Below, piece by piece: positions 20,557 to 57,985 of a stretch of 64,000 nt of DNA. Where the stretch lies: assembly GCA_035391225.1 (NCBI GenBank), contig DAOPKN010000001.1, forward strand, positions 32,808 to 96,807, read 5' to 3'. The position numbers and the translations under genes are program-made. Numbering within the stretch: position 1 is the stretch's first letter; every line of letters begins with the position of its first letter. Origin of the DNA: Thermotogota bacterium (GTDB lineage: Bacteria > Thermotogota > Thermotogae > MWEM01). The notes beneath the pieces were generated by a model. That model ran no database searches, was not told the DNA's origin, and saw only the letters and a list, made by a program, of their open reading frames with translations.

Positions 20557-20566
20557 TGGTATAATC
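20557..20566 (+). promoter_or_regulatory. Candidate extended -10 promoter element (TGGTATAAT) for the CARF gene
   Basis: 'aaTGgTATAATc' lies about 35 nt upstream of the TTG start at 20600, giving a perfect TATAAT with a TGn extension. The -35 region is weak ('TTTCCA'). Confidence 0.3.
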
Positions 20567-20599
20567 TTTTCGCACATCCATCACGGGGAGGGGAACGAA

Positions 20600-21040
20600 T
20601 TGACGGAACGTCTACTGATTACTCCGCTGGGAACGTCTCCCGGGGTGTTGTATACCCTGGTAAAGGTTTTGCAGCCCGATCGCATCTTCGTGGTTTCTTC
20701 CGCAAAGGCACTGGGGAGTTTGCCCGAAATTGCCCAAAGGTCGGGTTTTGACCTGAAAGGCATCGTTTCTTTTTTCTTCCAAGACCCTTTCAGTGGTTTC
20801 GAGGAAATGCCGGGCTTCTTGGAAGCACTCAAGAAGAACTGGCCCGACGCTGTCATGCCCGAAGTGATCGTGAACCTGGCGGGGGGAACTTCCTTCTTGC
20901 AATACGCGGTGGGAAAGGCTTCGGATTTTTGCGAACAAAAGAAAATCCCGGTGAAAAAGGTGTTTGCCGTTGACCGCCGGGAGTTCTCCCAACAGCGAGA
21001 AGAACCTTACGTTGTGGGAGAAGTGATTCCAGTTCCGTGA
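20600..21040 (+). CDS. Stand-alone CARF-domain protein (Crn1-like candidate ring nuclease or cyclic-oligoadenylate sensor)
   Basis: Start set at TTG 20600 (GGGGAGGGG site 7 nt upstream). The ORF track's 20552 start lies in the promoter region. 'LLITPLGTSPGVLYT' matches the CARF strand-1/Gly-Thr-Ser loop (compare 'LGTSPG' of Crn1). 'VIVNLAGGTSFLQYAVG' matches the second CARF ligand-binding motif (h-h-N/D-h-T/A-GG-T/F-K/S). Confidence 0.55.
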   Translation: MTERLLITPLGTSPGVLYTLVKVLQPDRIFVVSSAKALGSLPEIAQRSGFDLKGIVSFFFQDPFSGFEEMPGFLEALKKNWPDAVMPEVIVNLAGGTSFLQYAVGKASDFCEQKKIPVKKVFAVDRREFSQQREEPYVVGEVIPVP

Positions 21041-21049
21041 GGTGATACA

Positions 21050-22096
21050 ATGGGGAAACGAAAAAGAATTTTCACCAACGTGGGAAACACGTTTTGGAGA
21101 AGCACCTTTGGTGGGGAGGATAGGCAGTTCGATTCTTCCCGGCTGGTGCAAGAAGCAGCGAAAATGACCCTGGAGGACTTGGAATGCAGGTCCCCGGAAG
21201 TGAACAGCCTGAGCCAGTTTGGCTTGGATGGAAGCGAAGAGCTGCTTTTCTTCTGCACCAACACACCGGATTCGCTGGCGTGCGGGGAGGCGTTGGTTTC
21301 CTTGTACCGGCAGGGAGAGTACCAGGTTTCGCTGGAAACCTTGGAACACTTCCACGATTCCGGTTCGTCCGATTCCTTCCGAAAAGGCGTCGCAGAGTAC
21401 GTGAGCAAAATGATTTCGTACCTGGATAAGCCCGATTCCCGGTACGGCTTGGATACCTTCATCAACGTGACATCGGGTTTCCGATCCCTCGTGCCGTATG
21501 CAACCATCCTGGGCACGGTATTTCACGCCAGCGTTTTCTACCTCTACGAACGGCAGTCGAAGGTCCACGTGCTACCGCCGCTGCCCATTTCCTTCGATGA
21601 TGGTGTTTTCCAGCAGAACGACCTGTTTTTCTTCCGGCTTTCCAACGACATGCTTCCGCGGAAAGAAGTGCAGGATGTCATCGGGTACCAAAAAATGATG
21701 GAGATGATGCCCGATTACCTGGTGGAAGAAGATGGGTTGGTGTATTTCTCGGAGTTGGGGCGCATCCTTTGGGGGAAGTTCAACGCCGAGAACCCCGTTC
21801 TGTTCCTTTCCGACGAAGCGAAGAAAAGGCTCAAGAAAACCCCGGAGCTAAAGGAGCTGGTGGTGAAAGCCCTCAAGGGGGAGGGGCAGCCCGAGCATTC
21901 GTTGCACGAGTACAAGGGGAAGCTGCAGTGCTACAAGTTTGACCGGAAGTCCGTCCGGTTTTTCTACGAGACGCGCAACGGCTACCTGTACATCGCGAAG
22001 ATCCTGGACCACGACGAGTACGAGCGTTACATTTCCCAGGCAAAACCCAACGAGGAATTCCGTTGGAACCGCGAACGGATTCCCATGGAAGGGTAA
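21050..22096 (+). CDS. CARF-RelE fusion protein (Cami1-like cyclic-oligoadenylate-activated mRNA interferase candidate)
   Basis: Lies 9 nt after the stand-alone CARF gene, so the two are probably co-transcribed. N-terminal CARF motifs 'RIFTNVGNTFW' and 'FINVTSGFRSLVPYATILG'. C-terminus 'YKGKLQCYKFDRKSVRFFYETRNGYLYIAKILDHDEYERY' fits the RelE/ParE toxin core pattern (G/K...Y..R..Y......h-Y-I-h-.I-h-.H-.-e-Y). Confidence 0.55.
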   Translation: MGKRKRIFTNVGNTFWRSTFGGEDRQFDSSRLVQEAAKMTLEDLECRSPEVNSLSQFGLDGSEELLFFCTNTPDSLACGEALVSLYRQGEYQVSLETLEHFHDSGSSDSFRKGVAEYVSKMISYLDKPDSRYGLDTFINVTSGFRSLVPYATILGTVFHASVFYLYERQSKVHVLPPLPISFDDGVFQQNDLFFFRLSNDMLPRKEVQDVIGYQKMMEMMPDYLVEEDGLVYFSELGRILWGKFNAENPVLFLSDEAKKRLKKTPELKELVVKALKGEGQPEHSLHEYKGKLQCYKFDRKSVRFFYETRNGYLYIAKILDHDEYERYISQAKPNEEFRWNRERIPMEG

Positions 22097-22100
22097 GGCT

Positions 22101-22673
22101 TCATTCCCGGGGATGCTTTTTCAACGAAACGATGAGCATTTGGATCCTTGCAATCCCGTACGCGATAAACGCATCAGCGGCTGCGATGAATCCTACCAGC
22201 AAGAGAAACAGGGTGGAGTGATCCGTCTGTTCGAGGAAAAAAGGGAAAAAAGTAGTTAGCCACAAGAGCGAAGGAAGGATTGCCAACACGAGGGTTCGTC
22301 GCAAGCGGATGAATTTTTCCATCTTTGAGCGGTTGTCCGAGAAGATATCCGGGGTTTGGGAATTGGTTTGTTGCGTGCGGAAGCAGTGCCAGTTGGCGAA
22401 AGAATCGATGTATTCCCATCCCCCATCTGAGAAGAGGGCGGTGTATTCGGGGAAATCCTTCCCTCCCTGTACCCGGTAATCGAAGCAATAGGTGAAGTCT
22501 CCAGGGGTTCCCTTCACGAAACGGTACGTTCCAAACCCGAACTGGCTAAGGTGCCACCCTTCTTTGGACATTTTTTTTAACCATCGGGTTTCCCTTTGCT
22601 CATTCCAAGCGGTGAAAAAGCGGTGCACTGTTTTGCTGCTTTTGGATGTGTTCATGGGCATTTCCCCTTTCAT
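22101..22673 (-). CDS. DUF2812 domain membrane protein (PadR-associated)
   Basis: 'GWHLSQFGFGTYRFVKG' matches the DUF2812 signature, and the C-terminus has two TM helices. The start ATG overlaps the upstream PadR stop in an ATGA overlap, and DUF2812 is a classic PadR-operon partner. Confidence 0.65.
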   Translation of the reverse strand: MKGEMPMNTSKSSKTVHRFFTAWNEQRETRWLKKMSKEGWHLSQFGFGTYRFVKGTPGDFTYCFDYRVQGGKDFPEYTALFSDGGWEYIDSFANWHCFRTQQTNSQTPDIFSDNRSKMEKFIRLRRTLVLAILPSLLWLTTFFPFFLEQTDHSTLFLLLVGFIAAADAFIAYGIARIQMLIVSLKKHPRE

Positions 22674-23011
22674 TCTTGTTCCTCCCTTTCCAGGATTCCG
22701 GTTGCAACACTTGCCATCTGGGCGATGCGACGCGTCTCGATTTGAAGGATTTGTTTGCCTTCCTCAGATACTTGGTACACCTTCCGCCGGGGGTTTTCCG
22801 GATCTTCCCCCTGGAATGTGATGGCTCCAAGCTTCTCCAACTTGGACAGTGCACCGTACAGTGTTCCCGGTCCAAGGTTTACGCGCCCATCGCTCATCTC
22901 GGAGACCTTTTGCATGATACCGTACCCATGCAGTGGTTCCGTCAGGGCAAGGAGGATGAAGAAGGTGGTTTCGGTCAAGGGACAAAGGGATTGCAGTGCA
23001 CGTTTTCCCAT
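22670..23011 (-). CDS. PadR-family transcriptional regulator
   Basis: 'FFILLALTEPLHGYGIMQKV...GPGTLYGALSKLEKLGAI' is the PadR winged-HTH signature. Start set at ATG 23011 (AAGGAGG 8 nt upstream). The ORF track's TTG at 23017 is the alternative. Confidence 0.85.
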   Translation of the reverse strand: MGKRALQSLCPLTETTFFILLALTEPLHGYGIMQKVSEMSDGRVNLGPGTLYGALSKLEKLGAITFQGEDPENPRRKVYQVSEEGKQILQIETRRIAQMASVATGILEREEQE

Positions 23012-23030
23012 ACGCAAACCTCCTTGATGT

Positions 23031-33211: not shown

Positions 33212-33285
33212 AAAATCCCCCCCTTTGGATGGGCAGGTCTTGATCTCGACTGATTATACCAATTATAACGCATAGAACCATTTTT

Positions 33286-35584: not shown

Positions 35585-36851
35585 CCACCCAGGACTAAGC
35601 TACCAAGAATTGCCAAATGGGGCCCAGGTGTACTTCCAAAAGATGCCTGGGCTGCGTTCGGTGTGTATCGGGGTTGCGGTTCGTGCGGGTTCCTCGCACG
35701 AACCCGCGGACCTTGGGGGTATCGCGCACTTCACCGAGCACATGGTTTTCAAGGGAACTACCAAGCGGGACGCCTTTTCCTTGAAAGAACCCATCGAGAA
35801 GGTGGGAGGAACGTTGAATGCCTTCACCGGGAAGGAAACCACGGTTTACTTCGCGCGGGTTCCCGATTTCCAGGCAAAGGTGGCGTTGGAAATCTTGCTC
35901 GATATTGGGCAGAACGCCGTTTTTCCCGAAGAGGAGTTTAGCCTGGAAAAAGAAGTGGTGATCGAGGAGATCTGGTCTTCCGAGGATGATCCCGTGGACC
36001 AGGTGTACGAGAACCTTTTCCAGCTGGCCTGGAACGGCGGTGCCTATGGCCGGCCAGTGCTCGGGAATTTCGAAAGCGTTTCCCGCACGGAGCGAAAGGA
36101 CCTGGTGGATTTCTACCGCTCCCAGTACCACTCCAAGAACCTCATCGTTTCCGTGGCTGGTGACGTTGCCCAGGATTTCTTCAACCCCTTGGAGGCGTTT
36201 CCGACCGGTAACGCGGACCTCTCTCCCGCGGTTTTGGAGTATGCGCCGAAGGAACAGGTGGTTTTCGAGGAGAAGGAAGATTTGCAGCAAGTGCACCTTT
36301 TGCTGGGTCTCCGCGCTCCGGGCCGTAAAGACCCCCATTTCGATGCCTTCCAGGTGTTGAACGTCATCTTGAGCGGAGGCATGAGTTCCCGGCTGTTTCA
36401 CCGTGTGCGGGAGAAACTGGGTCTGGTGTACGCCATCGACTCTGGGTTGATTTCCTACCCCTCCAACGGGATTTTTTACATTTACGCCGCCACTTCGGCA
36501 GAGAAAGTGGGGCGCTTGGTGGAAGAGTTGCGCGGACAGGTTTCCGACCTTTTGCAGCACGGTGTGCGCGAGGAGGAGCTGGAGTATGGAAAGGCAAGGT
36601 TCCGGGGGAAATTGCTCCTTTCCACGGAAAGCACCTACTCTTCGATGATGCGGAACCTGGATAGCGGGCTGTCCTTGGGGCGTCCAGAGACCGTGGAAAA
36701 GATGGTGGAGCGAATTTTGCACATCGATTCTGAAAAACTCCAAGAGGTAATCCGGGAGTACCTGTCGCACCCCTGGCTCATGAGCACGGTTGTCCCCACG
36801 CGTTCCGTGGACCTTCTGAAAGCGAGTAAAATCCTTGAAAAGGGGTTTTGA
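35571..36851 (+). CDS. M16-family zinc peptidase (insulinase/pitrilysin-like, possibly an inactive partner)
   Basis: 'GIAHFTEHMVFKGT' HxxEH inverted zinc motif. The start may be ATG 35571 or GTG 35556, both overlapping the pnp 3' end. Confidence 0.75.
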   Translation: MKTIDHPGLSYQELPNGAQVYFQKMPGLRSVCIGVAVRAGSSHEPADLGGIAHFTEHMVFKGTTKRDAFSLKEPIEKVGGTLNAFTGKETTVYFARVPDFQAKVALEILLDIGQNAVFPEEEFSLEKEVVIEEIWSSEDDPVDQVYENLFQLAWNGGAYGRPVLGNFESVSRTERKDLVDFYRSQYHSKNLIVSVAGDVAQDFFNPLEAFPTGNADLSPAVLEYAPKEQVVFEEKEDLQQVHLLLGLRAPGRKDPHFDAFQVLNVILSGGMSSRLFHRVREKLGLVYAIDSGLISYPSNGIFYIYAATSAEKVGRLVEELRGQVSDLLQHGVREEELEYGKARFRGKLLLSTESTYSSMMRNLDSGLSLGRPETVEKMVERILHIDSEKLQEVIREYLSHPWLMSTVVPTRSVDLLKASKILEKGF

Positions 36852-36853
36852 TC

Positions 36854-37990
36854 ATGAAAATTTCCTGGCAACCCATCGACGAAATCAAAACCGGATCGGT
36901 TTGTGGGGACGATATTTTTGATCCCAATAGCTTCGTGCTGTTGACCCATCGCGGGAATGTCTTGAATTCCCAAACGCTGGCTTTCCTGAAAAGGCACAAC
37001 GTGACCTGGATCCCCGTGGGGGTGGAGGAAGCCAATGCCCCTCGCCCCGATGACACGCTCCCCCTTTCGTTGGAAAAGGAAACGATGGCCCAGGCGGAAA
37101 AAGCCCTTGCCCCTGATCTTCCCTTAGCGCTTTCCGACGAGAAGTACCATTCGGCACTGAATCGCTTCCAGAATTTTGCCCAGGTTTTGTTGGAGAAGGG
37201 GACGGTGAATCCTGCCGAGATCACCAACCTGTCCAACGACATCGTGAGCGAGGTGATCAAGACGGAGCCGGGGGTTTTGAACTTCCTCACGGAGATCAGC
37301 GGGGGCTTCATCGTGAAGCACGGTATCAACGTTGCGATCCTTGCGGCATCCTTGGCGCACCATCTCAAGCAACCCTGGCATTACCTCGTGCAATTGGTGA
37401 AGGTGGCACTGCTGCATGATGTGGGGTTGATATGGGTTTCCCCCAAGCGGTCGCTGCAATTCGTGGAAGATATCCAGAAGGAGTTCGAGTACGGGCCGAT
37501 GGACCGCATCAAGATGCACCCCATTTTGGCGGTGAAGATAATCCAGAAGGTCGATCCTGGTTTCTTGGAAAAGGACGTGGAAACGGGAATCCTCGAGCAC
37601 CACGAACGCTTCGATGGCAGGGGTTTCCCCTTCCACCGGGTGGGGAAGGGCATCCATTTTTTTGCCCGGGTTCTTGCTGTTGCCGATACGTACGATACCT
37701 TGATTACTTCCATCGGCGGAAAGGCCCGGATGGATCCCCATGCGGCTTTACGCTGGATCATTTCCAAGGTGGATTCCGTTTTCGACCCGGACATGGTGCG
37801 GGCATTCATTCAGATTGCCGGCATTTATCCCACCGGTACGCTGGTGAAGCTGAACGATGGGAGCATGGGAAAGGTGATTTCCCGGGGAGAAAGGGCTTTG
37901 GGGCGTCCCATATTGCTTTCCGAAGGTCGTGAAATCGAGTTGGAAAAGAACCCGGATCTGTTTATCCTTGAGGTGAAGGGAATTGGTTAA
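36854..37990 (+). CDS. HD-GYP domain protein (c-di-GMP phosphodiesterase family) with an N-terminal sensor region
   Basis: 'LLHDVGLIWV' HD motif and 'HHERFDGRGFPF' GYP-region motif. Confidence 0.8.
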   Translation: MKISWQPIDEIKTGSVCGDDIFDPNSFVLLTHRGNVLNSQTLAFLKRHNVTWIPVGVEEANAPRPDDTLPLSLEKETMAQAEKALAPDLPLALSDEKYHSALNRFQNFAQVLLEKGTVNPAEITNLSNDIVSEVIKTEPGVLNFLTEISGGFIVKHGINVAILAASLAHHLKQPWHYLVQLVKVALLHDVGLIWVSPKRSLQFVEDIQKEFEYGPMDRIKMHPILAVKIIQKVDPGFLEKDVETGILEHHERFDGRGFPFHRVGKGIHFFARVLAVADTYDTLITSIGGKARMDPHAALRWIISKVDSVFDPDMVRAFIQIAGIYPTGTLVKLNDGSMGKVISRGERALGRPILLSEGREIELEKNPDLFILEVKGIG

Positions 37991-39062
37991 ATGGAAACCA
38001 CTCGAACAACTCCAGGAAGGCGATGTGATCGCGGAGAACATCCTTGGGAGTAATTCCCAAGATCTGATCGTCCACACGGGGCAACTGGTTTCCAAAGCCT
38101 TGATCCAAAAGTTGCATAGCCGAGGGATTTCGTGGATCTCGGTTTTCGAGGATGTTCGTAAGGCAGTGCAGATCCACTCCGCCCCGTTTTCCCAGGAAAA
38201 GCTCGATGAAATGGAAGAGGAGATCTCCCAGGTCTTCGAAAAGATCCTCAAAGAGGAGCGGGTGGAAGTCGCACGGGTGGAGACGCTGGGAAGGGAAATT
38301 TCCCATGCCATCATTTCCACCTACGGGGAGTACCTGGTTCCCTCGCTTTCCAAGTTGCGCGAACTGGATGACTACACCTTCAACCACCAGGTGAACGTTT
38401 CGATCATTGCCACTTCCATTGCGGCCGAGATGTTTCCCCACGACATTGGCATGGTGGAACGGATTGCAACGGGGGGGCTTTTGCACGACATGGGGAAGTT
38501 GTGGATCCCCTTGGAGATCTTGAACAGCAAGAAGCGCCTTGCGGACATGGAATTTGATATCATCAAGAAACACCCCAAGTATGGCCACGGGATTGCCCTT
38601 ATGTCTGGGATCGAAGACCAGGTAGTTTTGGACTGTATTCTTTTTCACCACGAACGCGTGGATGGCACGGGGTATTGCACGGGTTTGAAGGGCGAAGAGA
38701 TTCCCTTCGCTGGCCGGTTGATGATGGTCGCGGATGTGTTTGATGCCCTGACATCGGTGCGCCCCTACAAGAAAGGCTGGTCTCCGTACGATGCCGTGAG
38801 TTTCATCATCAAGGAAACCGGCAAAATGTTCGACCAGAAGATCGTGAATCCTTTTATCAAGGCTTTTGGCATTTACCCCGTGGGCACGGAGGTGCTTCTC
38901 TCCGATGGCTTGAAGGGGACGGTGGTGGGGAATCGGAAGGGGACCATTTCCCGACCGCTGATCAGCTTTGAGAGAAATGGTGAGTCGAAGTTGGTCGACT
39001 TGTTCGAGAGAAAAGACTTGCGCGTGGTGGAGGTACTGCGGGGTGCCCTGGCAACCGGGTGA
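37983..39062 (+). CDS. HD-GYP domain protein (tandem paralogue)
   Basis: 'LLHDMGKLWIP' and 'HHERVDGTGY'. Overlaps the upstream paralogue by 8 nt. Confidence 0.8.
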   Translation: MVKWKPLEQLQEGDVIAENILGSNSQDLIVHTGQLVSKALIQKLHSRGISWISVFEDVRKAVQIHSAPFSQEKLDEMEEEISQVFEKILKEERVEVARVETLGREISHAIISTYGEYLVPSLSKLRELDDYTFNHQVNVSIIATSIAAEMFPHDIGMVERIATGGLLHDMGKLWIPLEILNSKKRLADMEFDIIKKHPKYGHGIALMSGIEDQVVLDCILFHHERVDGTGYCTGLKGEEIPFAGRLMMVADVFDALTSVRPYKKGWSPYDAVSFIIKETGKMFDQKIVNPFIKAFGIYPVGTEVLLSDGLKGTVVGNRKGTISRPLISFERNGESKLVDLFERKDLRVVEVLRGALATG

Positions 39063-40287
39063 GCCCGCGCTTCGCGCGCTGGGTGATGGCTTGTTTTTGC
39101 CCGATTACGGCAACCGCTCGCTGGTGGGTTTTTCCAACTTCCTGTTGCAGCATTTTGGAGAGACACCGTTGCACGAGCCTTTTCACGTAGGTGATTCCTT
39201 CGCTTGGGTGGGAAAACGCAAAAAAGTGGTGGTTTTCCTGTTGGACTCCCTGGGTTTCTCCAATCTTCAACGAATCTGTGCGTGCTCTCCCTATGCTGCG
39301 CAGCTTGTGGAAAAAGCGGTGTGCTGGAAGCTCTCCACGGTGTTTCCCTCCACGACAACCGCCGCACTAACCAGCTTTTTCACCGGGCGCTATCCTTGTG
39401 AGCACGGCATGTTGGGGTACATACTGTTCCTCAAGAAATTCTCCTCCTACGTGAACATGATCGATTTCTCTCCACCCGGATTGCCGCGTGACATTCTTTT
39501 GGGAACGGGATTGAATCCCACGCGTTTCTTGCCGGTTCCCACGCTTTTCGAGATACTGGGGAAAAAGGGGGTCAAGTGCTGGTCGGTGACCTCGAACCTT
39601 TTCAAGCAATCCGGGTTGAGCTTGATGCATCACAAGGGTTCGGCCATTCGTGGCTACTCGGACATGACGGAAATGGCTTTTTGCGTGCAACGACTTTTGC
39701 AAAGGGAGAAAGGACCCCTTTTCGTCACCGTGTACTGGGGGCTTCTCGATTCGCTTGCGCACCATTATGGCCCCGATTCCGAAGAGTTTGCCAAGGAAGG
39801 CGAGCTGCTTTTTCGTCTTTTCCACGAGGTGTTGTTTTCCAACAAGGAGATTCCCCAACCTGAAGATACGTTGTTTTTCATCACCGCGGACCATGGACAG
39901 ATTGCCACGAGCTGGAAGGACGAAAGTTGGTTCGTGTACCAGGATCCACTCATTTCGGAGCACCTGGAGGGACTTCCTTCCGGTGAGCCCCGTGCGGTAT
40001 ACCTTTCTCCCCGGGATGCAGAGGCTTTCCAAAGGGATTTTTCCGCACAGGTTGGCAACCGGTTTCGTTGGCTTTCCCGCACGCAAGCCCTGCAGCATGG
40101 TTTGTTCGGGGCTGCAGAAAGCGCGAGCCCTCTTTTTTTCGAACGGGTTCCCCCGCTCGTGGGACTGGCAAAGGGAAACTACTCGTTTAACTTTAAGTAC
40201 TCGGGCAACGAGCGATCTCTCAAAGGGAAACACGGAAGCGTAACCACGGGGGAGTTGGAAATCCCATTGTTGATGATTGCTCCTTGA
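39043..40287 (+). CDS. Alkaline-phosphatase-superfamily phosphodiesterase / nucleotide pyrophosphatase-like enzyme
   Basis: 'VVVFLLDSLGF' (metal-binding Asp-Ser/Gly) and 'FITADHGQ' (DHG motif) as in type I phosphodiesterases. Start uncertain: GTG 39043 (GGAGGT 7 nt upstream) is preferred over ATG 38968, which would overlap the upstream gene by 95 nt. Confidence 0.55.
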   Translation: MPWQPGEPALRALGDGLFLPDYGNRSLVGFSNFLLQHFGETPLHEPFHVGDSFAWVGKRKKVVVFLLDSLGFSNLQRICACSPYAAQLVEKAVCWKLSTVFPSTTTAALTSFFTGRYPCEHGMLGYILFLKKFSSYVNMIDFSPPGLPRDILLGTGLNPTRFLPVPTLFEILGKKGVKCWSVTSNLFKQSGLSLMHHKGSAIRGYSDMTEMAFCVQRLLQREKGPLFVTVYWGLLDSLAHHYGPDSEEFAKEGELLFRLFHEVLFSNKEIPQPEDTLFFITADHGQIATSWKDESWFVYQDPLISEHLEGLPSGEPRAVYLSPRDAEAFQRDFSAQVGNRFRWLSRTQALQHGLFGAAESASPLFFERVPPLVGLAKGNYSFNFKYSGNERSLKGKHGSVTTGELEIPLLMIAP

Positions 40288-40320
40288 GCATGTTGCTTTC
40301 GAGGAAAAAGGGGTTTTTTT

Positions 40321-41097
40321 ATGTCTTCTCACGTTTCCATATACCTTTTGAAAGATTTTCCCGTACTGGGAAAAAAGGGCAATGTGGTCAGGGTTCCCCG
40401 GAAGTACGCCAATCACTTCCTGGTGCCGCGCAAGATTGCCCGGAAGATAGAGCCTGGAAACACCCCTCCTCCGCCGCTTCCACAGGAACTTCCAGCTGGG
40501 CGAACCCCACAGCAAGTGCTCCCCTCCCGCAAGAAAAGCCGCGATGTTTCCGCCTCCTTCCCCACCCAGCTTCCGCCGGTATCGTTTCCCGTTTCTTTCC
40601 GCCATGGGGGCGAAAAGGAGTGGGTTCGCTGGGAATGGTACCCCGCGCACCGTCTCGCATACCTCCCTGGAGGCGGGCGATTCGTGTTGATTCGCTTCCG
40701 CAAGAAGACGTATTTCGCCACTTTTTCCTACCTGCAAGCGTTGGTTCGCCGGAAGATCCGTGCCCCACTAATCGTGGATGGCAGTAACACGGGTTGGGTC
40801 AACGGGTTTCCTTCCTTGGACCCGATCTTTTTGGTGTACGATTACATTGCACGGGATTCGGAGCAATTCTTCTTCCCGCTGGTTTGGGTCTTCGATACCT
40901 CTTTCCGCCGGAAACTATGTCCAAGTGAGCGGAACACGTTGGATGAATTCTCCCGCTGGTGGGGGGTGCGGGTAGTGGGTTACGCCGATCGGATGATTTT
41001 CCAGATGGCCCGGGAGTATGGTACCCGTTTCCTTTTTTCCGACGATCGATTCCAGGAATTTTTTACGGAAGACTACACGCGTATCAGTTTTCGGTGA
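40321..41097 (+). CDS. Fusion of a ribosomal-protein-L9 N-terminal-like domain, a Pro-rich linker and an NYN/PIN-like nuclease domain
   Basis: N-terminus 'VSIYLLKDFPVLGKKGNVVRVPRKYANHFLVPRKIAR' aligns with L9-N ('[35 protein letters not shown]'). The C-terminal 'IRAPLIVDGSNTGW...' is the NYN-domain hallmark. Confidence 0.5.
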   Translation: MSSHVSIYLLKDFPVLGKKGNVVRVPRKYANHFLVPRKIARKIEPGNTPPPPLPQELPAGRTPQQVLPSRKKSRDVSASFPTQLPPVSFPVSFRHGGEKEWVRWEWYPAHRLAYLPGGGRFVLIRFRKKTYFATFSYLQALVRRKIRAPLIVDGSNTGWVNGFPSLDPIFLVYDYIARDSEQFFFPLVWVFDTSFRRKLCPSERNTLDEFSRWWGVRVVGYADRMIFQMAREYGTRFLFSDDRFQEFFTEDYTRISFR

Positions 41098-42769: not shown

Positions 42770-43482
42770 CCGGTTTCCCGGACTTGTTCGTGCAATCTCT
42801 ACCCCTGCTGTTTGACCACGAATGGGAAAGGTTTCTTCGACTGGTGCTGGTGCGCACCCCTTCGGTGATATTCGCACTGGCGTTCCACGAATGGGCACAT
42901 GCCTGGGTGGCTTGCAGGGTGGGCGATCCCAGCCCACGCCTCTTGGGGCGGAAAACGCTCAACCCCTTGCGGCACATTGATCCTGTGGGGCTGGGGGTCT
43001 TTTTGGTGTTCGGGTACGGGTGGTCCAGACCCATTCCCATCAACCCGTTGAAATTGAAGAGGAAGACGCGCGACATCTTCCTGATCACGATTTCTGGTCC
43101 CGTTTTCAACCTTGGCCTCGCCTTTTTCGCGGGTTTCTTGTTTTACGGGTTGGGGTTGCACAAGTTCAGCTTTTTTTTCAATCCGGGTGCGGTGGATGCC
43201 CATTTCCTCGTGATGTACCTTGCGGACTTGTTGGGATATTTCGTGGTTGCCAATTTCGTGTTGTTCGTGTTCAACGTTCTTCCGGTCATGCCGTTGGATG
43301 GTTCTCGGTTCCTGCTGATTTTTTCCACCTCTCGCTACATGAAGGTAGTGTTGAAGTACCAGGTGTACGGCATCATCGTGTTGCTTTTCTTGATTATCAC
43401 TGGGATTGCCAACTGGTTCATGGCGCCCATCGTGGAATTGTTCCAGGGTATGATCATTCGCCTGTCCCAGTATTTTGGATGA
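42766..43482 (+). CDS. M50-family membrane zinc metalloprotease (SpoIVFB/site-2 protease-like)
   Basis: 'HEWAHAWVA' HExxH within a TM helix, a later 'NLLPVMPLDGSRFL' LDG motif, and multiple TM segments. Its ATG overlaps the upstream stop in an ATGA overlap. Confidence 0.75.
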   Translation: MTGFPDLFVQSLPLLFDHEWERFLRLVLVRTPSVIFALAFHEWAHAWVACRVGDPSPRLLGRKTLNPLRHIDPVGLGVFLVFGYGWSRPIPINPLKLKRKTRDIFLITISGPVFNLGLAFFAGFLFYGLGLHKFSFFFNPGAVDAHFLVMYLADLLGYFVVANFVLFVFNVLPVMPLDGSRFLLIFSTSRYMKVVLKYQVYGIIVLLFLIITGIANWFMAPIVELFQGMIIRLSQYFG

Positions 43483-43502
43483 GGTGGCAAAAGGGGGTAT
43501 TT

Positions 43503-44402
43503 ATGAACCACAACAGGGAGTTTCCATTTATCCAGGTGAAAGATACCGAGCTGAAGGAAAGGATCGTGGGCTTCGTGAAGGAGTACCTGGAATTCATGAC
43601 GTTGCCGCCTCAGGTTTTCGTGTACGACCAGGAATCCGTTCTTCCGTCGGACGTGGAAGGATCCGTGTTGTATTTCTTGGGCTCCCGGGTGGAAGGGTAC
43701 TGCGCGGGGGAAAAAGTGTTCGCCTTCGAGGACTCCCGTAATCCGCGTTTTTTTTCCATGGCGTTGACCTGGCTCTTGGAAAGCAACACGGGCAAACCGG
43801 AACACCTTTGTTCGGCCCAATCCGTTCGCAAGCGGTTGATTTCGGTTCTCGAACCCTTCATCGTGCTGATGGAGGTGGAAGACGAGCGGGGGTACAGCCA
43901 TTCGCAGCGCGTGTCGAATCTTTTCGTGCAGTTTTCCCGCTACCTGGGTCTTCCCAAGGAAGATGAGAAGATGTTTCTCCACTATTCCATGTTGCACGAT
44001 GTGGGAAGGATCGGGTTGGAGCAGTTGATGTTGTATTCTCCCACGCGACTGCGCAACTTCGAGGAAACCGGGCAGGACCACACGATTACCGGGTCGATTT
44101 ACCTTTCTACCCTGGAAGTGCTGGACGATTTCATTCCTTTCGTGCGCAGTCACCATGAGCGGTTCGATGGAAGGGGTTTCCCGGACCGCTTGAAAGCGAA
44201 AGAGATCCCCTACTGGGTGCGGGTGTTTTCCATCGTGAACTGGTACGATAATGCCTTGAATACCGTGGATTCGGAGTTTTCCACGGGGGTCATGAGTTCC
44301 ACCCAAGCCCTTTCGATTATCCGGGAAGATGGCGGCAAGATGTTTGATCCGCACCTCGCATCCGAGTTCGTGCATTTCATGTTGCTCGAGCGAGACGCAT
44401 GA
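43503..44402 (+). CDS. HD-GYP domain protein (third copy in the window)
   Basis: 'MLHDVGRIG' and 'HHERFDGRGFP'. Start set at ATG 43503 (AAAGGGGG site upstream). The ORF-track start 43020 lies inside the M50 gene. Confidence 0.75.
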   Translation: MNHNREFPFIQVKDTELKERIVGFVKEYLEFMTLPPQVFVYDQESVLPSDVEGSVLYFLGSRVEGYCAGEKVFAFEDSRNPRFFSMALTWLLESNTGKPEHLCSAQSVRKRLISVLEPFIVLMEVEDERGYSHSQRVSNLFVQFSRYLGLPKEDEKMFLHYSMLHDVGRIGLEQLMLYSPTRLRNFEETGQDHTITGSIYLSTLEVLDDFIPFVRSHHERFDGRGFPDRLKAKEIPYWVRVFSIVNWYDNALNTVDSEFSTGVMSSTQALSIIREDGGKMFDPHLASEFVHFMLLERDA

Positions 44403-51002: not shown

Positions 51003-53051
51003 TCAAAAATCAGCGGTGTCATCGTCCAATGGGATAACATCCTCCGGGTTCACCACGCGGGTGGTTCCGGTGGGTTTCCTCTTGGGTACGATGTTCTGGT
51101 TCTTCTGCCCGCCGGCAAGTCCCTTGGGTTTGTTGCCCCCGGTGGGGTGTTGCAGGTGTGGGGGGTTCGCGTGCTGGGCGGGTTTCTTCGCCGGAGCCTT
51201 GTGAGCCCTTCCCGTGGGCGCGAGGGATTCGATGCCCTCTTTTCCCGTCACCAGCTTGTTGAGCTGTCCCACGATTTCCCGCATGCTTTCGGCTTGTGCG
51301 CTGAGCTCCTCGGATGCGGAGGCGCTTTCTTCCGCGTTGGCGGCGTTGCCCTGCGTGACTTCTTCCATCTGTCCCACCGCGACGTTGATCTGGTTGATAC
51401 CCTGCGCCTGCTCGTTGCTGGCTGCGTTGATTTCGTCGATCAGCGAGTTGACCTTGGTGGCGTGCTCGTTGATTTCCACCAACGCAGTGCCAACCTTTTC
51501 GGCCACGGAAACCCCTGTCTGGGAGAGCTGGATGTTCTTCTCGATGATGCTCGCGGTATCCTTCGCTGCCTGGGCGCTTCGCTGCGCAAGGTTGCGCACT
51601 TCTTCCGCAACCACTGCAAATCCTGCTCCCGCTTCCCCTGCCCTGGCAGCCTCCACGGCAGCGTTGAGTGACAGGATGTTGGTTTGGAAGGCGATGTCGT
51701 CGATGACCTTGATGATCTTGGAAATCTCGTCGCTGGATTTCTTGATTTCTTGCATGGAATTCATCATTTCCTGCATCTGGGAATTTCCCGTTGCGGCGGA
51801 TTCCTTGGTTTTCTTGGCAAGGATGGAAGCCTGGTTGGTGTTCTCCGTGGTTTGTTGGATCATGGACGTGGACTCGTTGAGTGTTGCGGAGGTTTCCTCC
51901 AGTGCCGAGGCCTGCTCGGAGCTTCCTTCCGCGAGCTGCTGGCTGGCAGAGGAGAGTTGGTCGGAAGCGGAGGCCACCTGGTCAGACCCCTGGTTCAGGT
52001 CGTTGACGATGCGGCTGATGGGCTTGGTGATGCCACGAATAACCACTACAGCCAGTACGGTTCCCACGATCACGGCAATGATCAGGCCGATGATGACCAC
52101 CATCGTGGAGCTGGCAAGCGCACTCACAGCGCTGTTGGCCACGTCACTCGTTTGGGTGATACCACCCTCCGCAACCTTTTGCGCGGCTTCCAGAACCTTG
52201 TTCGCCGCGTCGTTCCGTTGGGTGTTCAGCGAGTTCAAGTCTTTCCAGTTGGTTGCAAACTGACGAATGGCCGTTTCGTACTGGCCAAGAGCCACAAGGA
52301 TCTGGTCGAGTTGGCGGATGTTAACATCCACCTTTGTCACGGCGCGGATCTGCTTTTCCACCAGCTTCATCGCGTCGAAGTTGTTGAGCACTTGCTCCAA
52401 CATCGTGATATTCGATGTTGCCTGCGCCTTGAAGTTGGTCACGCGGAGCTCGTTGCCCATGTCGATGATGTCGTTGATCCAGGTGATCTTCTGCAACCGG
52501 TCCTCGAGTTCAGCAGTCGTGGCGCCGGCTTCGATCTGCTCTTTCATCTTGTCGTTCTGGGAGGTGAGGTAGGCCCCGGTTTCCTGGACGAACAGCGCCG
52601 CTGCCTGGTCCATTTGGGTACGCAGCGTTTTCATGGCATTGATTTCGTTCTGCGTCTGCGTTACGAGAGAGTTGTAGGTGGTGACCTGGGACTTGGCTTG
52701 CCCGATGTTGTTTGCCAGCGCGGTCAACTGGGGAAAGTCTTCGACGTGTTTTTCCGCGACTGCAATCTCTTCGTCCACGAGCTTCAAGTAACCTCGGCCT
52801 TGGGTAAGGAAGGTCTCGTCTTCGCTGTAGCTGTAGCCCCGAATGGCGAACATGGTAAGCAGTGAATTGCGTTCCAACTCGTTGGCCATTTCTACTTCCG
52901 GAACATACGCTTCGGCGAGCTCGGTGGACTGTGCCTGGATGTTCATCATGTTGAATACCGCGATCAAACCGATGACGCCCGCAATCGCCAGGATGACGAT
53001 GAATCCCAGCGCGATCTTGAAACTAAGCTTCATGTTTGAAAACATCTTCAT
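51003..53051 (-). CDS. Methyl-accepting chemotaxis protein
   Basis: N-terminal TM helix, HAMP, and the MCP signalling core '...[35 protein letters not shown]...'. Confidence 0.9.
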
Positions 53052-53524
53052 TCCCCCTTAATCTGCGCAAGCGCAGCAAGTTCTTGTGCGTTGAGCACTT
53101 TTTCGATGTTCAGGAGCATCACGACCTTTTCCTTCACCTTTGCCATACCCATGATGAAGTCGGTGTCCACCGATGTACCGTACTGTGGGGGAGGTTCGAT
53201 GCTGCCTTCCTGGATGTTCACAACCTCGGCCACGGTGTCCACCACCACGGCCATCAACCGCTTCTCCTCGTTCACCTGGATTTCGAGCACGATGATCACG
53301 GTGCGTTCGTTGTACTCCTTCTCTTCCAGTCCGAACTTCAGTCTCAAGTCCATGATCGGAATGATTTTTCCCCGAAGGTTGATCACACCCTTGATGAATT
53401 CGGGCGTGCGGGGTACTTCGGTGATTTCGATCATGCCAATGATGTCCTTGATCTTCAGGACCGGGATTCCGTAAAACTCCTTTCCGAGCGTGAAAGTGAG
53501 GTAAATCCCGGAATTGCTTTCCAT
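53048..53524 (-). CDS. cheW: Chemotaxis coupling protein CheW
   Basis: '[21 protein letters not shown]...[15 protein letters not shown]' CheW domain. Start set at ATG 53524 (AAGGAGAG site upstream). Confidence 0.85.
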
Positions 53525-53547
53525 ACAATCTCTCCTTTCGTGGGGGG

Positions 53548-55898
<2,351 letters not shown>

Positions 55899-55909
55899 TT
55901 TTCGCCTTC

Positions 55910-57985
55910 CTACGTGGTCGAGTGGGCTTTCTTTTTCTGCACGAGCGCGTTGATGTCCAAGATCATGGCGATGGAGCCATCTCCCAGGAGTGTGGCCCCG
56001 GAAATGAATTCCACCTTTTGGAAGTTTTCCTCCAGCGACTTGATCACCACCTGGTACTTGCCCACAATTTCATCCACTTGCAACCCAAGGAACTGGTTGG
56101 AAGATTGCACCACCGTGAGCATGGTAGCCGGGGTTTTCTGGAAGCCGAAAAGTTCTCCCAGGTGTACCACGGGGATGAATTTTTCGCGGAAGGGCAGGGC
56201 TTTTCCAGCCCCCTTCACGTCAATGAGCGCTTCTTGGTCCAGGGTAAGGAATTCGGTGACAGAATGGATGGGAATCACGAAGAAATTGGAGCCCACCCGG
56301 ATCAGGATACCGTCGATGATCGCCAGGGTCAGGGGGATGGCGATGCGGAAAGCGGTGCCCTTTCCCGGTTCGCTTTGAATGTGGATGCTTCCACGGATAG
56401 AGGCCAGGTTGGATTGCACCACGTCCATCCCCACCCCACGTCCGGAAATGTCGGTGATGCGTTCCGCGGTGGAAAAACCAGGTTGCAGGATGAAACGAAA
56501 AATCTCCGAATCGGTGATTTCCTGGGTAGATTCCACCAGTCCCCTTTCTATAGCTTTTTGGAGGATCCGATCCCGGTCGAGCCCGCGCCCGTCGTCGAGA
56601 ACTTCGATGACAACCTCTCCCCCTTCGTGGTAAGCTTTTAGGGTTAGGCGAGCGGGTGAGGGTTTCCCCAGCCTTTGCCGCTCTGCGGGGGATTCGATCC
56701 CATGGTCGATGGAATTTCGAACCATGTGTTTCAACGGGTCTTTGAGCTTTTCGATCACATTCTTGTCGAGTTCGGTGTCCTCCCCCACGATTTCGAACTC
56801 CACTTCCTTTTGTTGCTGGTGGCTGAGATCACGCACCATGCGCCGGAACTGTACGAACGTTTCCTTCACCGGCACCATGCGTGTTTTCATCACCGTGGTC
56901 TGCAGCATCTCCACGTAGCGATCCAATTCCACGAGCAGTGCCTCTTCTTCCAGCTCCAGCCAGCCTTTTCGCTCCATCATCGAACGAATGCGGGACTTCG
57001 CCACCACCACTTCTCCCACGGTATCGATGAGTTCGTCCAGTTTTCCCGTGTCGATGCGAACTGTACTCAGGCGTGCCATGGTACGGACCTTCTGCTGTTC
57101 CGACACGGCCTGGTCTACGATTTTGCGTGTGACTGCACCTTGGCGAATGAGGTCTTTTCCGATGGGGTTGTGCTGCTCCATGGCCTTTTCGATTTCTTCT
57201 TCCCCCACGAACCCCTTCTGTACCAGGATTTCTCCCAAGCGTTCCTGGGTGATGGACAATTCATCCGGACGGATAGGCTCGATCGTGATCTTGTTGTCCA
57301 CGGAAACGAACAGGAAGATCGTGTCCAGTTCCTCCCTTCCGGATGTTCCGGAAATCACGATCTGCCAGTTGAGGTAGTTCTTGAAGGGGTCGAGGTTTTC
57401 GATGGGGGGGATCTTCTTCACGATCAGGCTGGAACTCACGATATGGAAGGACTGGGAAAGGTCCTCGAGGATCATCAACGGATCGGTGCCCGTTTCAAAC
57501 AGTCCCTCGTTGAATTCCAGCAGTAGGCGGAAATGGTTCAACTTCTGCGTATGCTTCGGTTCATCATGGTGGGTGCTTTCGTGGGGTTTTTCCTCCCCAT
57601 GGGTCCACTTGTGCATCCGCTCCTCGATGGCGTCCGTTCTTTCCCGATTTGCGAACGTTTTCCCGGAAAGCCTGCATTGCACCATATCCGAAAGAACATC
57701 CCGGGACTCCAGAAGCAATTGCAGGATTTCCTCGTTGACAGCAAGCGTATGGTTTCGAAGCAGGTCAAGAAGGTTTTCCGCGTGATGGGAAAAGGATTCG
57801 ACCTCCCGGTACCCCGCAAATCCCGCGCTTCCCTTCAGGGTGTGCGCCGCGCGGAAGATCTTGTTGATGATTTCCGGGTCGTTGGGGTTGGTTTCCAGGT
57901 TCAGCAGCTCTTCTTCGAAAACCCCCAATTGCTCGGATGCATCCGCTAAAAAAGCTTGCTCCAGTTCGGAAAATTCTTGGGCCAT
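55910..57985 (-). CDS. cheA: Chemotaxis histidine kinase CheA
   Basis: Hpt 'FRAAHTLKGSAGFAGY', dimerisation, HATPase ('DDGRGLD', 'GRGVGMDVV') and C-terminal CheW-like domains. Confidence 0.9.
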   Translation of the reverse strand: MAQEFSELEQAFLADASEQLGVFEEELLNLETNPNDPEIINKIFRAAHTLKGSAGFAGYREVESFSHHAENLLDLLRNHTLAVNEEILQLLLESRDVLSDMVQCRLSGKTFANRERTDAIEERMHKWTHGEEKPHESTHHDEPKHTQKLNHFRLLLEFNEGLFETGTDPLMILEDLSQSFHIVSSSLIVKKIPPIENLDPFKNYLNWQIVISGTSGREELDTIFLFVSVDNKITIEPIRPDELSITQERLGEILVQKGFVGEEEIEKAMEQHNPIGKDLIRQGAVTRKIVDQAVSEQQKVRTMARLSTVRIDTGKLDELIDTVGEVVVAKSRIRSMMERKGWLELEEEALLVELDRYVEMLQTTVMKTRMVPVKETFVQFRRMVRDLSHQQQKEVEFEIVGEDTELDKNVIEKLKDPLKHMVRNSIDHGIESPAERQRLGKPSPARLTLKAYHEGGEVVIEVLDDGRGLDRDRILQKAIERGLVESTQEITDSEIFRFILQPGFSTAERITDISGRGVGMDVVQSNLASIRGSIHIQSEPGKGTAFRIAIPLTLAIIDGILIRVGSNFFVIPIHSVTEFLTLDQEALIDVKGAGKALPFREKFIPVVHLGELFGFQKTPATMLTVVQSSNQFLGLQVDEIVGKYQVVIKSLEENFQKVEFISGATLLGDGSIAMILDINALVQKKKAHSTT

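Follow-up and report, generated by a model that had tools for sequence, protein, structure and literature searches.

A stand-alone CARF protein encoded beside a Cami1-like CARF-RelE gene in a Thermotogota bacterium: a detached effector domain and candidate cyclic oligoadenylate off-switch

At the locus considered here, within a 64-kb stretch of Thermotogota DNA (the window, i.e., the whole of the sequence that was analysed), a small gene whose product consists of a CARF domain and nothing further is found directly upstream of, and on the same strand as, a gene for a CARF-RelE protein. An earlier note, made from the sequence alone, had described the small gene's product as 147 aa long. The open reading frame itself is borne out, on the plus strand, but not its length, as that count had included the stop codon, i.e., the protein consists instead of 146 aa. 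Both of the strings which had been quoted from it as CARF hallmarks, LLITPLGTSPGVLYT and VIVNLAGGTSFLQYAVG, do occur verbatim in the small protein, and the distance from the small gene to the ATG of its neighbour is indeed 9 nt. The features of the locus, in the order in which they are encountered, are as follows:

20557 to 20565, plus strand: extended -10-like element TGGTATAAT, 34 nt 5' of the small-gene start; candidate promoter of a putative two-gene operon.
20585 to 20593, plus strand: Shine-Dalgarno-like GGGGAGGGG, with core GGAGG at 20587-20591, 8 nt 5' of the TTG; read from the sequence.
20600 to 21040, plus strand: stand-alone CARF gene, with start TTG at 20600 and stop TGA at 21038-21040; product of 146 aa.
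21039 to 21045, plus strand: GAGGTGA, the downstream gene's ribosome-binding site, which shares nucleotides with the TGA of the small gene; read from the sequence.
21050 to 22096, plus strand: Cami1-like CARF7-RelE effector gene, with ATG at 21050; product of 348 aa, with motif II INVTSGFRS and with DHDEY, which includes H321.

The small open reading frame is a genuine gene rather than one existing by chance. This follows from its 15 homologues, which at 45-56% identity possess 37 invariant columns, from the 473 cluster representatives which an exhaustive profile search recovers at E<=1e-3, and from the recurrence of the gene pair in at least four more contigs, whose samples and sources differ (L005-L008, with seven carriers read in all). 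A longer frame, starting with TTG 20552, was considered and then rejected as the gene, since the N-termini of homologues align with 20600, since P0001, a public protein of identical sequence, also has 146 aa, and since the GGAGG core has its 8-nt spacing from 20600. Rejected as well was a reading of the small gene as a truncated HD-effector pseudogene, as tblastn shows no remnant upstream and as the gene has a ribosome-binding site and promoter-like element of its own, with naturally split homologues too having their own ribosome-binding sites. The gene's GC content is that of the genomic background. Among same-species contigs it displays zero polymorphic sites, variation there being too low for dN/dS.

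As to transcription, the earlier note had placed an extended -10 within a promoter region shared by the two genes. That element, TGGTATAAT, is present, and its exact copies in the window number two, versus 0.07 expected, with the second found on the minus strand, at 33261-33253, where a start codon of the same strand follows 41 nt further on. No -35 element was found, and the promoter is a candidate one.

The downstream gene is, going by its profile matches, a homologue of Cami1, i.e., it is predicted to encode a CARF7 domain, a linker, and a RelE-fold nuclease with its catalytic histidine. Its product matches the PADLOC profile CARF7--CARF_RelE at 2.5e-38 (residues 34-337), Pfam Cas_APE2256 (PF09651) at 1.7e-18, and PDB Cami1 entry 8phb at 3.6e-16 (over residues 47-333). 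H321, as found in DHDEY, is the conserved histidine which in entry 8phj has been substituted with alanine. Motif II differs, however, reading GGFK in Cami1, with a lysine, versus SGFR here, with an arginine. Polymorphic sites in this gene, as seen among same-species contigs, are all at third codon positions (eight of eight). An operon-like pairing of the small gene with a genuine Cami1-type CARF-RelE gene, as had been proposed, thus holds up in terms of both gene layout and profile matches. Overlap between the small gene's stop and the ribosome-binding site of the CARF-RelE gene implies, moreover, translational coupling of the second gene to that stop, and at related loci it is the two reading frames themselves which overlap, by 13-22 nt.

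That the small protein is a CARF protein is supported by structure prediction, which the earlier note had put forward as a check on this point, with the outcome being a CARF fold rather than a non-CARF one. The AF2 model (pLDDT 92) displays a Rossmann-like, six-stranded CARF core, the protein's sequence profile matches the CARF domain of Can2 (E 1e-5), and its closest structural relatives are Can2 and Card1, with Can2 the best match. In the model the CARF fold forms one domain, residues 4-145, with no additional segment. This last point bears on a further suggestion, that of an antitoxin-like sequestering partner, i.e., a small protein which neutralises the toxin by binding directly to its RelE domain or to its CARF7 dimer, much as seen with type II toxin-antitoxin systems. 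Gene order, that is, small gene and then RelE-domain gene with apparent translational coupling, does recall relBE operons. A single CARF fold, however, supplies neither a DNA-binding nor a RelB-like, toxin-wrapping segment, and no sequence similarity is detectable between the small protein and its CARF-RelE partner, including the partner's CARF7 domain (E 3.8). Conservation in addition is concentrated on the ligand face (as considered next), the domain in most relatives is covalently joined to a different effector, and Cami1 stays inactive until cA4 binds, that is, it is already inactive ahead of that binding. With what is found consisting solely of a ligand-binding fold, this suggestion goes unsupported and is viewed here as extremely unlikely.

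In the small protein, motif I reads PLGTSPG (residues 9-15), and NLAGGTS (residues 92-98) makes up motif II. Family statistics on these motifs, and on conserved residues, are based on the 151 best of the 473 cluster representatives. For motif I, G11 is found in 150 of the 151, serine or threonine at position 13 in 139, and G15 in all, while for motif II both G95 and G96 are found in all. Among CARF proteins this Gly-rich loop, found after strand 4, usually has lysine or arginine at its end. The motif-II basic position, i.e., that of the motif-II lysine, is S98 in the window protein, as placed by HMMER alignment to Can2 along with hhalign to TtCsm6. This position is serine or threonine in 150 representatives, alanine in one, and lysine in none. 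Found after strand 5 are the family-specific DRR (125-127) and Q132..P136-Y-V-x-G140. Family-wide invariants consist of G11, S/T13, G15, S34, N92, G95, G96, T97, T/S98, D125, R127, Q132, and P136, and these are located in or just past the loops which follow strands 1, 2, 4, and 5. G140 likewise counts as a family-invariant residue. Of the 15 columns with conservation of >=90% across the 151 representatives, the window protein keeps 14, and the one which it has lost, T94 to alanine, is a change that is common to the Thermotogota subgroup.

These conserved residues were placed on the pocket using secondary-structure positions together with sequence alignment to TtCsm6, a self-limiting cA4 ring nuclease from Thermus thermophilus. 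Motif I aligns with G58-T59-S60 of TtCsm6, such that T12 and S13 correspond to T59 and S60 (hhalign, verified sequence), residues which are involved in nucleophile and phosphate positioning. S34 corresponds to T81, which is an adenine contact, D125 to D163, and E141 to E179. The predicted ligand face is, that is, strongly conserved, with the Ser/Thr loop and what should be the adenine-contacting serine both present. There nevertheless are differences. K137 of TtCsm6 is Ser98 in the window protein, Y161, a cleavage residue, is Ala123, and N164 is Arg126. In TtCsm6, furthermore, the CARF domain serves a HEPN nuclease as its sensor, whereas the window protein is free.

A likeness to Crn1, which the earlier note had drawn, does not survive these comparisons. 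The small protein matches neither PF09651 nor the CARF7 PADLOC profiles at E<=1, while its neighbour matches both strongly, and its motif-II lysine has been replaced by Ser98. Crn1 proteins (Sso2081/Sis0455 and Sso1393/Sis0811) belong instead to a different CARF lineage (CARF7 / CARF_m13), and strictly conserved among them are S11/K106 in Sis0455 and S12/K169 in Sis0811 (PMC9638899). Both the strict lysine and R105 of the Crn1 GGRK are absent from the small protein, though the motif-I serine is kept (S13), and absent also is the lid which small Crn1 proteins have as a C-terminal insertion. Nor is there a profile match between the small protein and Csx15, Csx16, Csx3, or Csx20, and neither by sequence nor by fold does it belong to Crn2/DUF1874, Crn3/Csx3, Csx15, Csx16, Csx20, or Crn4, with Crn4 identity having been considered specifically and rejected as the fold differs. 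Can2 and Card1 (DUF1887), though nearest in structure, differ in possessing the GGTK lysine and in being sensors which are fused to a PD-(D/E)xK nuclease, and they bind cA4 but do not cleave it.

To what, then, is the small protein related? Its best PADLOC match, at E 4e-36, is to PDLC01839, one of the CARF2--CARF_HEPN_CARF profiles (PDLC01838-01840), and this match involves residues 3-145 versus profile positions 379-517 of 518, i.e., the C-terminal end of the profile only. The reciprocal profile search recovers TM1812-like as well as CYTH-CARF7-HD proteins, with matches at their C-termini. By sequence, the small protein thus is a detached version of the C-terminal CARF domain of TM1812/Csx2-type Csx1 effectors and of Thermotogota CYTH-CARF7-HD effectors (the latter PDLC01929-type with an extra domain). 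The C-terminal CARF domains of these effectors are true homologues, with the family invariants common to both. This family has already been catalogued by PADLOC, while no biochemical data or function for any of its members was found in the searchable literature. The PADLOC label 'CARF2', it may be added, describes the sensor CARF at the scaffold's N-terminus rather than the clade of the small domain, and the small domain's next-best PADLOC matches are to CARF1 families. Searches for viral homologues, which would have hinted at anti-CRISPR use, returned none from IMG/VR and only one weak match from BFVD (E 2e-4, TM 0.49).

Among the 151 representatives, 98 are TM1812-like, three are CYTH-CARF7-HD-like, 19 are stand-alone, and 31 are of intermediate length, these last probably being fragments. 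The domain is thus fused in at least 101 of the 151, and it is found at the extreme C-terminus in 148. From these numbers it might be argued that the domain is an obligate regulatory subunit or second sensor, one which acts in cis when fused, in trans following fission, and which in the window docks on the Cami1-like protein. Such a domain would tune its effector allosterically, by binding either the effector's own ligand or a different one. Consistent with this, split copies directly follow the parent gene, with frames overlapping or abutting, as would be expected of products that still assemble, and with both Csm6-2 and Can1 it is two different CARF domains that jointly form one ligand site. 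The domain, however, is found on two unrelated effector scaffolds, and it lacks an adjacent parent in Marinitoga (L001/L012), at L034, and in the window, with the original HD partner absent from the window as well. Occurrence in Marinitoga and at L034 without the parent effector argues, indeed, for autonomous function. Similarity to the CARF7 domain, as would be needed for pairing, is not detectable by sequence, and the alternative add-ons seen in the same position are autonomous enzymes. An obligate regulatory subunit consequently is seen as unlikely.

The small protein's nearest relatives are fused or split copies of the domain within Thermotogota type III loci. At 20 related loci the CARF domain and the HD effector are encoded either as one fusion protein or as split genes, a Cami1-like gene follows at once, and the context, where the contig extends far enough, is in all cases apparently type III CRISPR, with cas genes or the conserved cassette present. 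The conserved order of this Thermotogota cassette is helicase, CYTH-CARF7-HD-CARF, Cami1-like, and Cas6, and the domain has become detached repeatedly, with its own ribosome-binding site (L004, L028, L002, and L035). Judging from gene order, the window pair is the 3' end of that cassette, with only the last two parts kept and with the ancestral helicase and HD-effector genes missing. The small protein is therefore not the new kind of Cami1 partner which the earlier note had envisaged, but instead a C-terminal domain which has come away from larger type III effectors, with the pairing itself belonging to a conserved cassette. Versus the parent effectors, the window copy stands as an independent gene, preceded by a promoter-like element of its own, and it has neither a parent nor a CRISPR-cas neighbourhood within the window. 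A scan of genome contigs found one locus only.

The 'non-CRISPR context' that had been claimed for the pair stands for the 64-kb window only, within which there are no cas genes, CRISPR array, cyclic oligoadenylate (cOA) synthase, or parent effector, and where the pair's neighbours are housekeeping and signalling genes. Such surroundings, along with loss of the helicase and HD-effector genes, would be expected were the pair in decay and functionless, left behind when a type III CRISPR locus was lost. Both frames, however, are intact, each has a ribosome-binding site, a promoter-like element precedes them, and 14 of the 15 conserved residues have been kept despite only ~50% identity to nearest relatives. 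GC content is that of the background, polymorphisms in the partner gene are exclusively third-position while the small gene has none, the same layout recurs in contigs from different samples, and CARF effectors often are encoded apart from their cyclase. A functionless relic is thus considered to be very unlikely.

Both host effector families, TM1812-type and CYTH-CARF7-HD, already have their own sensor CARF. The CARF-HEPN scaffold is known also with Csx3, Csx16, or Csx20 in its C-terminal slot (CARF_HEPN_CSX3, _CSX16, and _CSX20), all three of which are proven cA4 ring nucleases (PMC12409355), and a Csx1-Crn2 fusion represents published precedent. In these cases, too, a detachable C-terminal add-on is found on a cOA-activated nuclease which has its own sensor, and Crn2, Csx3, Csx16, and Csx20 also exist as stand-alone genes, as does the window protein. 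They differ in being unrelated to, or distant from, the window CARF in fold and sequence, and in that their activity is proven, whereas the window protein is a candidate. Given what this slot on the same Csx1 scaffold otherwise holds, the most plausible reading of the small protein, one in which confidence is about evenly balanced, is that of a putative detachable cOA off-switch, as the earlier note had suggested, co-transcribed with a Cami1-like toxin and acting most likely as a ring nuclease, otherwise as a sponge.

As an off-switch, the small protein would dimerise as other CARF domains do, and the dimer would bind the cyclic oligoadenylate which activates its neighbour, most likely cA4. 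The pocket would consist of the loops after strands 1, 2, 4, and 5 (GTS, S34, GGTS, and DRR). The signal would then be removed, most likely through ring-nuclease cleavage but otherwise through sequestration. In the case of cleavage, the Ser/Thr loop would position the 2'-OH and the scissile phosphate, with Arg126/Arg127 standing in for the missing motif-II lysine. Produced from the same transcript as the CARF-RelE toxin, such a protein would both raise the threshold for and shorten the duration of ribosome-dependent mRNA cleavage. As what survives of a larger cassette, namely its 3' end, the pair presumably would respond to cOA that is made by a cyclase encoded elsewhere. The more specific proposal, that the family consists of new CARF-fold ring nucleases which lack the motif-II lysine and employ instead a D-R-R / Q / N constellation, is offered more tentatively, as something possible though short of an even chance.

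A number of observations speak against an off-switch. The motif-II lysine is missing from all 151 representatives and the equivalent of TtCsm6 Y161 is an alanine. Motif serine plus lysine is insufficient in any case, as both are present in Card1 and Can2, by which cA4 is not cleaved (PMC9638899), and Can2 is the best structural match. Cami1 itself has intrinsic ring-nuclease activity, and an extrinsic ring nuclease is found in only 30% of Cami1 loci (PMC12409355), so a helper is not obviously needed. The prevalence of fusion among representatives would also suit a domain that is integral to the effector, in a structural or allosteric capacity. The 64-kb window encodes no cOA synthase, and viral homologues, as are known for Crn2 and Crn4, are lacking in the databases searched.

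A ligand face that is conserved, yet which is missing both the canonical lysine and the Y161 equivalent, could alternatively be that of a non-catalytic cOA sponge or buffer, i.e., a dimer which binds cOA tightly without cleaving it and which thereby sets the threshold for toxin activation. This is the fallback within the off-switch reading, but it is weighed separately as the biochemistry is different. The closest structural relatives, as noted, bind cA4 without cleavage. Csx15, which likewise is small, CARF-like, and accessory, and is unproven as a ring nuclease, was found to lack that activity, has been proposed to be a sponge, and occurs outside of type III loci in ~25% of genomes (PMC12409355). 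The conserved face of Csx15 is away from the canonical pocket, however, whereas that of the window protein is on the canonical face, and no sequence relationship between the two was detected. Without turnover, moreover, buffering would be limited to one ligand per dimer, while the equivalent C-terminal slot of the same scaffold holds true ring nucleases and the nucleophile-positioning T/S pair has been retained. The role of the lysine in TtCsm6 and Crn1, too, is chiefly one of binding. With TtCsm6, K137A abolishes both binding and cleavage of cA4. With Sis0455, K106G weakens the KD to 4.1 uM versus 19.5 nM for S11G, the latter itself ~10-fold weakened (PMC9638899). Loss of the lysine therefore argues equally against tight binding, and a sponge which does not cleave is, overall, improbable.

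Ring nucleases decide the outcome of type III CRISPR signalling, that is, recovery versus dormancy and death, and new families of them keep appearing, with Csx16 and Csx20 confirmed in 2025 and Crn4 described late in that year. The family considered here is large (473 cluster representatives) and occupies the very slot which, on this effector scaffold, three proven ring nucleases also fill. Were its members indeed lysine-free ring nucleases, then type III CRISPR signalling would have in them, with ~470 cluster representatives, an off-switch which is widespread and so far unrecognised, and a share of those Csx1, Cami1, and HD-effector loci which have been scored as without a ring nuclease would be reclassified. 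The orphan pair would amount to a toxin module which responds to cOA, limits itself, and is self-contained, operating at a distance from any CRISPR locus. Cleavage of cOA without the signature lysine would mean as well that sequence rules for predicting CARF ring nucleases need to change. With binding only, the small protein would be instead a host-encoded cOA sponge. Under either reading, the 146-aa stand-alone form supplies a convenient minimal construct.

The small CARF gene is a real plus-strand reading frame beginning at 20600, as the earlier note proposed, though its product is of 146 rather than 147 aa. This start was preferred to that of a longer frame from 20552 on three grounds: homologues begin at the position of 20600; an identical protein in public databases (P0001, hypothetical, from a Thermotogota MAG) is also of 146 aa; and a GGAGG core precedes it. 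Both of the CARF motif strings that had been quoted are found in the product, and the gap to the next gene, which encodes a Cami1-like CARF7-RelE effector, is indeed 9 nt. The features of this region are as follows.

20557-20565, plus strand: exact TGGTATAAT, 34 nt upstream of the small gene start
8 nt upstream of 20600, plus strand: GGAGG core
20600-21040, plus strand: small CARF gene, TTG 20600 to TGA 21038-21040, 146 aa
Overlapping the small gene stop codon, plus strand: GAGGTGA, as read from the sequence, ribosome-binding site of the Cami1-like gene
21050-22096, plus strand: Cami1-like gene, 348 aa
22067-22046, minus strand: terminator-like hairpin within the 3' end of the Cami1-like gene
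22101-23017, minus strand: PadR-family regulator (115 aa) and DUF2812 protein (190 aa), a convergent two-gene unit
33253-33261, minus strand: second exact TGGTATAAT, with the start (33211) of a gene for a 480-aa LysM-domain protein 41 nt downstream

The PadR/DUF2812 unit ends 4 nt from the Cami1-like stop codon. On the other side lies a divergent 5TMR-LYT/PAS histidine kinase gene which, being of 838 aa in public annotation, leaves about 125 nt between it and the small gene. The extended -10 reported there is present, and a -35 element, looked for upstream of the small gene, was not found. Two copies of TGGTATAAT occur in the window versus 0.07 expected, each followed 34-41 nt downstream by a start codon on its own strand, and the motif is probably a true and strong -10 element of this organism.

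What is this small protein? Pfam returns no match and NCBIfam noise only. PADLOC's 'CARF2--CARF_HEPN_CARF' matches at E 4e-36, though the match is confined to positions 379-517 of the 518 in the profile, with the label 'CARF2' referring to the N-terminal sensor CARF of that scaffold and not to the small C-terminal domain. The domain's next-best PADLOC matches are CARF1 families, e.g., PDLC01794 at 7e-4 (2e-12 for the P0016 copy). An exhaustive profile search gave 473 cluster representatives, and among the best 151 of these the domain sits at the extreme C-terminus in 148. Proteins of 400-699 aa, that is, DxTHG CARF, R-N-x-x-x-H HEPN and then the small domain, make up 98 of the 151 and are named TM1812/Csx2 family by NCBI; 31 are probably partial proteins of 176-399 aa; three, of about 1050 aa, read CYTH (ExExK), CARF7, HD-CE, small CARF; and 19, of 140-175 aa, stand alone. 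The small domain is thus neither a new fold nor a new family, being already catalogued within CARF_HEPN_CARF. Nor does the Crn1-type identity that had been suggested survive, as the protein lies outside all known extrinsic ring-nuclease families by sequence or lineage, these being, as of December 2025, Crn1-4, Csx16 and Csx20, with Csx15 doubtful (PMC12830947). As an aside, the original T. maritima MSB8 annotation split a 548-aa TM1812-family protein into TM1812 (444 aa) and TM_1813 (102 aa), later records show it as a single protein of 548 aa, and the 102-aa record clusters with it; TM_1813 is probably the tail of such a C-terminal CARF domain.

An AF2 model built with 14 homologues (pLDDT 92, pTM 0.88) has six strands in strand-helix alternation. 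In fold comparison it scores highest against Can2 (8q3y, 14.5), followed by TtCsm6 (8jbc, 13.8), Can2 (8bao, 13.6), Card1 (11.9), VC1899 (11.8), EiCsm6 (11.6), Cad1 CARF (11.3), Csa3 (10.5), Crn1 Sso2081 (10.1) and Cami1 (8.7), with generic Rossmann folds below the CARF structures. The Can2 CARF domain is reached by sequence profile as well (E 1e-5). The earlier note named a DUF1887-type fold without the Ser/Thr-Gly loop as grounds against its own proposal. Since DUF1887 denotes the CARF domain of Can2/Card1 and this protein has the loop, those grounds do not arise.

Invariant or nearly so in the best 151 representatives are G11, S/T13, G15, S34, N92, T/A94, G95, G96, T97, T/S98, D125, R/K126, R127, Q132, P136 and G140. 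Most conserved residues fall in or just after the loops following strands 1, 2, 4 and 5 of the model, and Q132-G140 lie in its terminal hairpin; the conserved surface, as modelled, is the canonical CARF ligand face. Alignment by hhalign with the TtCsm6 CARF domain (E 2e-4, 128 columns; TtCsm6 sequence verified against PDB 8jbb) pairs residues as follows.

Small-protein residues and their TtCsm6 counterparts, with roles in TtCsm6 (PMC10897365)
T12/S13, T59/S60: position 2'-OH and scissile phosphate
S34, T81: main adenine contact
S98, K137: both binding and cleavage of cA4 are abolished in K137A
A123, Y161: cleavage driver
D125, D163: aligned by hhalign
R126, N164: cleavage driver
E141, E179: recognises A2 adenine, mobile loop

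This alignment, together with the conservation, indicates that the pocket is homologous and strongly constrained. Beside such a pocket, the possibility that the protein serves instead as a protein antitoxin to its neighbour seems very slight. The predicted pocket is without the canonical lysine and carries instead a family-specific D-R-R motif, which could supply positive charge in its place. Crn1 proteins strictly conserve the Ser and Lys at these positions, and the K106G substitution in Sis0455 lowers affinity for cA4, giving a KD of 4.1 uM (PMC9638899). Card1 has both residues yet does not cleave; the small protein has the Ser only.

Related loci, 35 in number, were fetched and their genes labelled by local BLAST. 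Mesotoga and Kosmotogaceae type III loci share a conserved accessory cassette (L013, L015-L028, L031; e.g., L013:4072-12559). Its members are a DEAD/ResIII helicase (about 1035 aa; PADLOC 'C3a193, possible alternative Cas3', E 1e-204), a four-domain HD effector, CYTH-CARF7-HD-CE(-CARF), of about 1070 aa, the small CARF domain, fused to it or separate, and then a 349-aa Cami1-like gene. Cas6 accompanies it in four loci (L003, L004, L013 and L002, in the last after a DUF2103-type gene), and L002 and L028 have Cmr3-6 upstream. The CARF domain and the HD protein form one fusion in 15 loci; in nine the domain has its own gene, abutting or overlapping, and in 20 the Cami1-like gene comes directly after it. 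In L004 a stop codon, AAGGAGGA ribosome-binding site and ATG fall exactly at the interdomain linker, and in L002 (3526-6385) a separate 198-aa CYTH gene precedes a 712-aa CARF7-HD protein, so that in this one locus the HD effector is spread over three genes, CYTH, CARF7-HD and CARF. Other settings occur: in L035, a Csx1-like CARF-HEPN (419 aa), a split CARF copy (143 aa), then Cas10-Csm2-5-Cas6; in L034, Csm1-5, a 205-aa protein without profile match (possibly Cas6-like, by eye), stand-alone CARF and a CARF7-DUF2103 protein; in two Marinitoga genomes, cas2-cas1-cas2, stand-alone CARF, Ser/Thr kinase, PP2C and FHA, with Cas10 9 kb off. The Marinitoga run (L001:10001-17197, M. aeolica; L012:3383-10879, M. 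litoralis) also includes VWA and FHA-PIN, with a RAMP gene and Cas10 downstream, and could be a phospho-signalling accessory module of the type III locus.

The window pair is, as is new, recognisable as the tail of this Thermotogota cassette, of which only these two members are present. Identity to the cassette counterparts is about 50% for CARF and 41-43% for the Cami1-like protein, so the separation is old. The same arrangement recurs in four or more other contigs, which come from different samples and sources (L005-L008), seven carrying contigs having been read; among them all eight polymorphic sites are third positions of codons in the Cami1-like gene, with none in the small gene. GC of the two genes, 52% and 54%, equals background (54%). 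Both genes have been kept since that separation, and a relic is an improbable description of the pair.

Does it then remove signal? There is, we judge, an even chance that the protein is an off-switch lowering free cyclic oligoadenylate (cOA), and, if so, a ring nuclease, which degrades cOA, is more likely than a sponge, which binds without cleaving. The strongest indirect argument is a shared C-terminal slot. The CARF-HEPN scaffold is catalogued with four alternative add-ons there, Csx3, Csx16, Csx20 and the small CARF, and the first three (Csx3 as Crn3) are proven cA4 ring nucleases, Csx1-Crn2 in turn being a characterised 'fuse to defuse' enzyme (PMC12409355). The protein P0021 matches the Csx3 and Csx16 profiles over their first 370-386 positions, and the Csx20 profile for longer, up to position 486 of 498. 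Autonomous signal removal is favoured over an integral sensor because each of the two host scaffolds has a sensor CARF of its own, because the domain detaches repeatedly, and because it also occurs without a parent effector beside it. An obligate subunit is unlikely. Against an off-switch are the missing motif-II lysine, the closest structural match, Can2, not being a ring nuclease, the intrinsic ring-nuclease activity of Cami1, and the lack of a cyclase nearby in the window. The remaining probability goes to another ligand or role. New also are the pairing of the stand-alone domain with a Cami1-type toxin away from a CRISPR neighbourhood and the family as a lysine-less candidate ring nuclease.

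The Cami1-like protein aligns with Cami1 (8phb) over residues 47-333 (E 3.6e-16) and keeps the His of DHDEY, which is Ala in variant entry 8phj. Its motif II (21461-21487, residues 138-146) reads SGFR. Cami1 (8phb) and DUF2103-type CARF7 proteins have Lys at this site, whereas all five Thermotogota Cami1-like sequences (TSG[FY]RS, alignment A2) have Arg. Because ring nucleases of the Crn1/CARF7 kind strictly conserve the lysine at that site, proteins of this subgroup might differ in their intrinsic turnover of cA4.

The non-CRISPR context earlier claimed holds at the scale of the 64-kb window: no CRISPR array was found there, nor any tblastn match to Cas or other cassette proteins. Remaining large ORFs are housekeeping or signalling (among them histidine kinases, MCPs, CheA/CheB, M29, M16 and M3 peptidases, PfkB, amylase, SerRS, PNPase, HD-GYP-type proteins, DnaB, RlmN), except for three without Pfam match (E<=1e-5).

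39367-40737, minus strand: ORF, 456 aa
44975-46264, plus strand: ORF, 429 aa
58676-60412, minus strand: ORF, 578 aa

Two-component and chemotaxis genes are unusually dense over 54-20577, the first 20 kb holding six large PAS/HisKA/HATPase hybrid kinases and response regulators plus an MCP. There are also three HD_5 (HD-GYP-type) paralogues (36848-39062 and 43020-44402), a CheA/CheB/MCP cluster (51003-57985) and three tandem minus-strand tRNA genes at 61103-61370 (Rfam RF00005, 61-67 bits).
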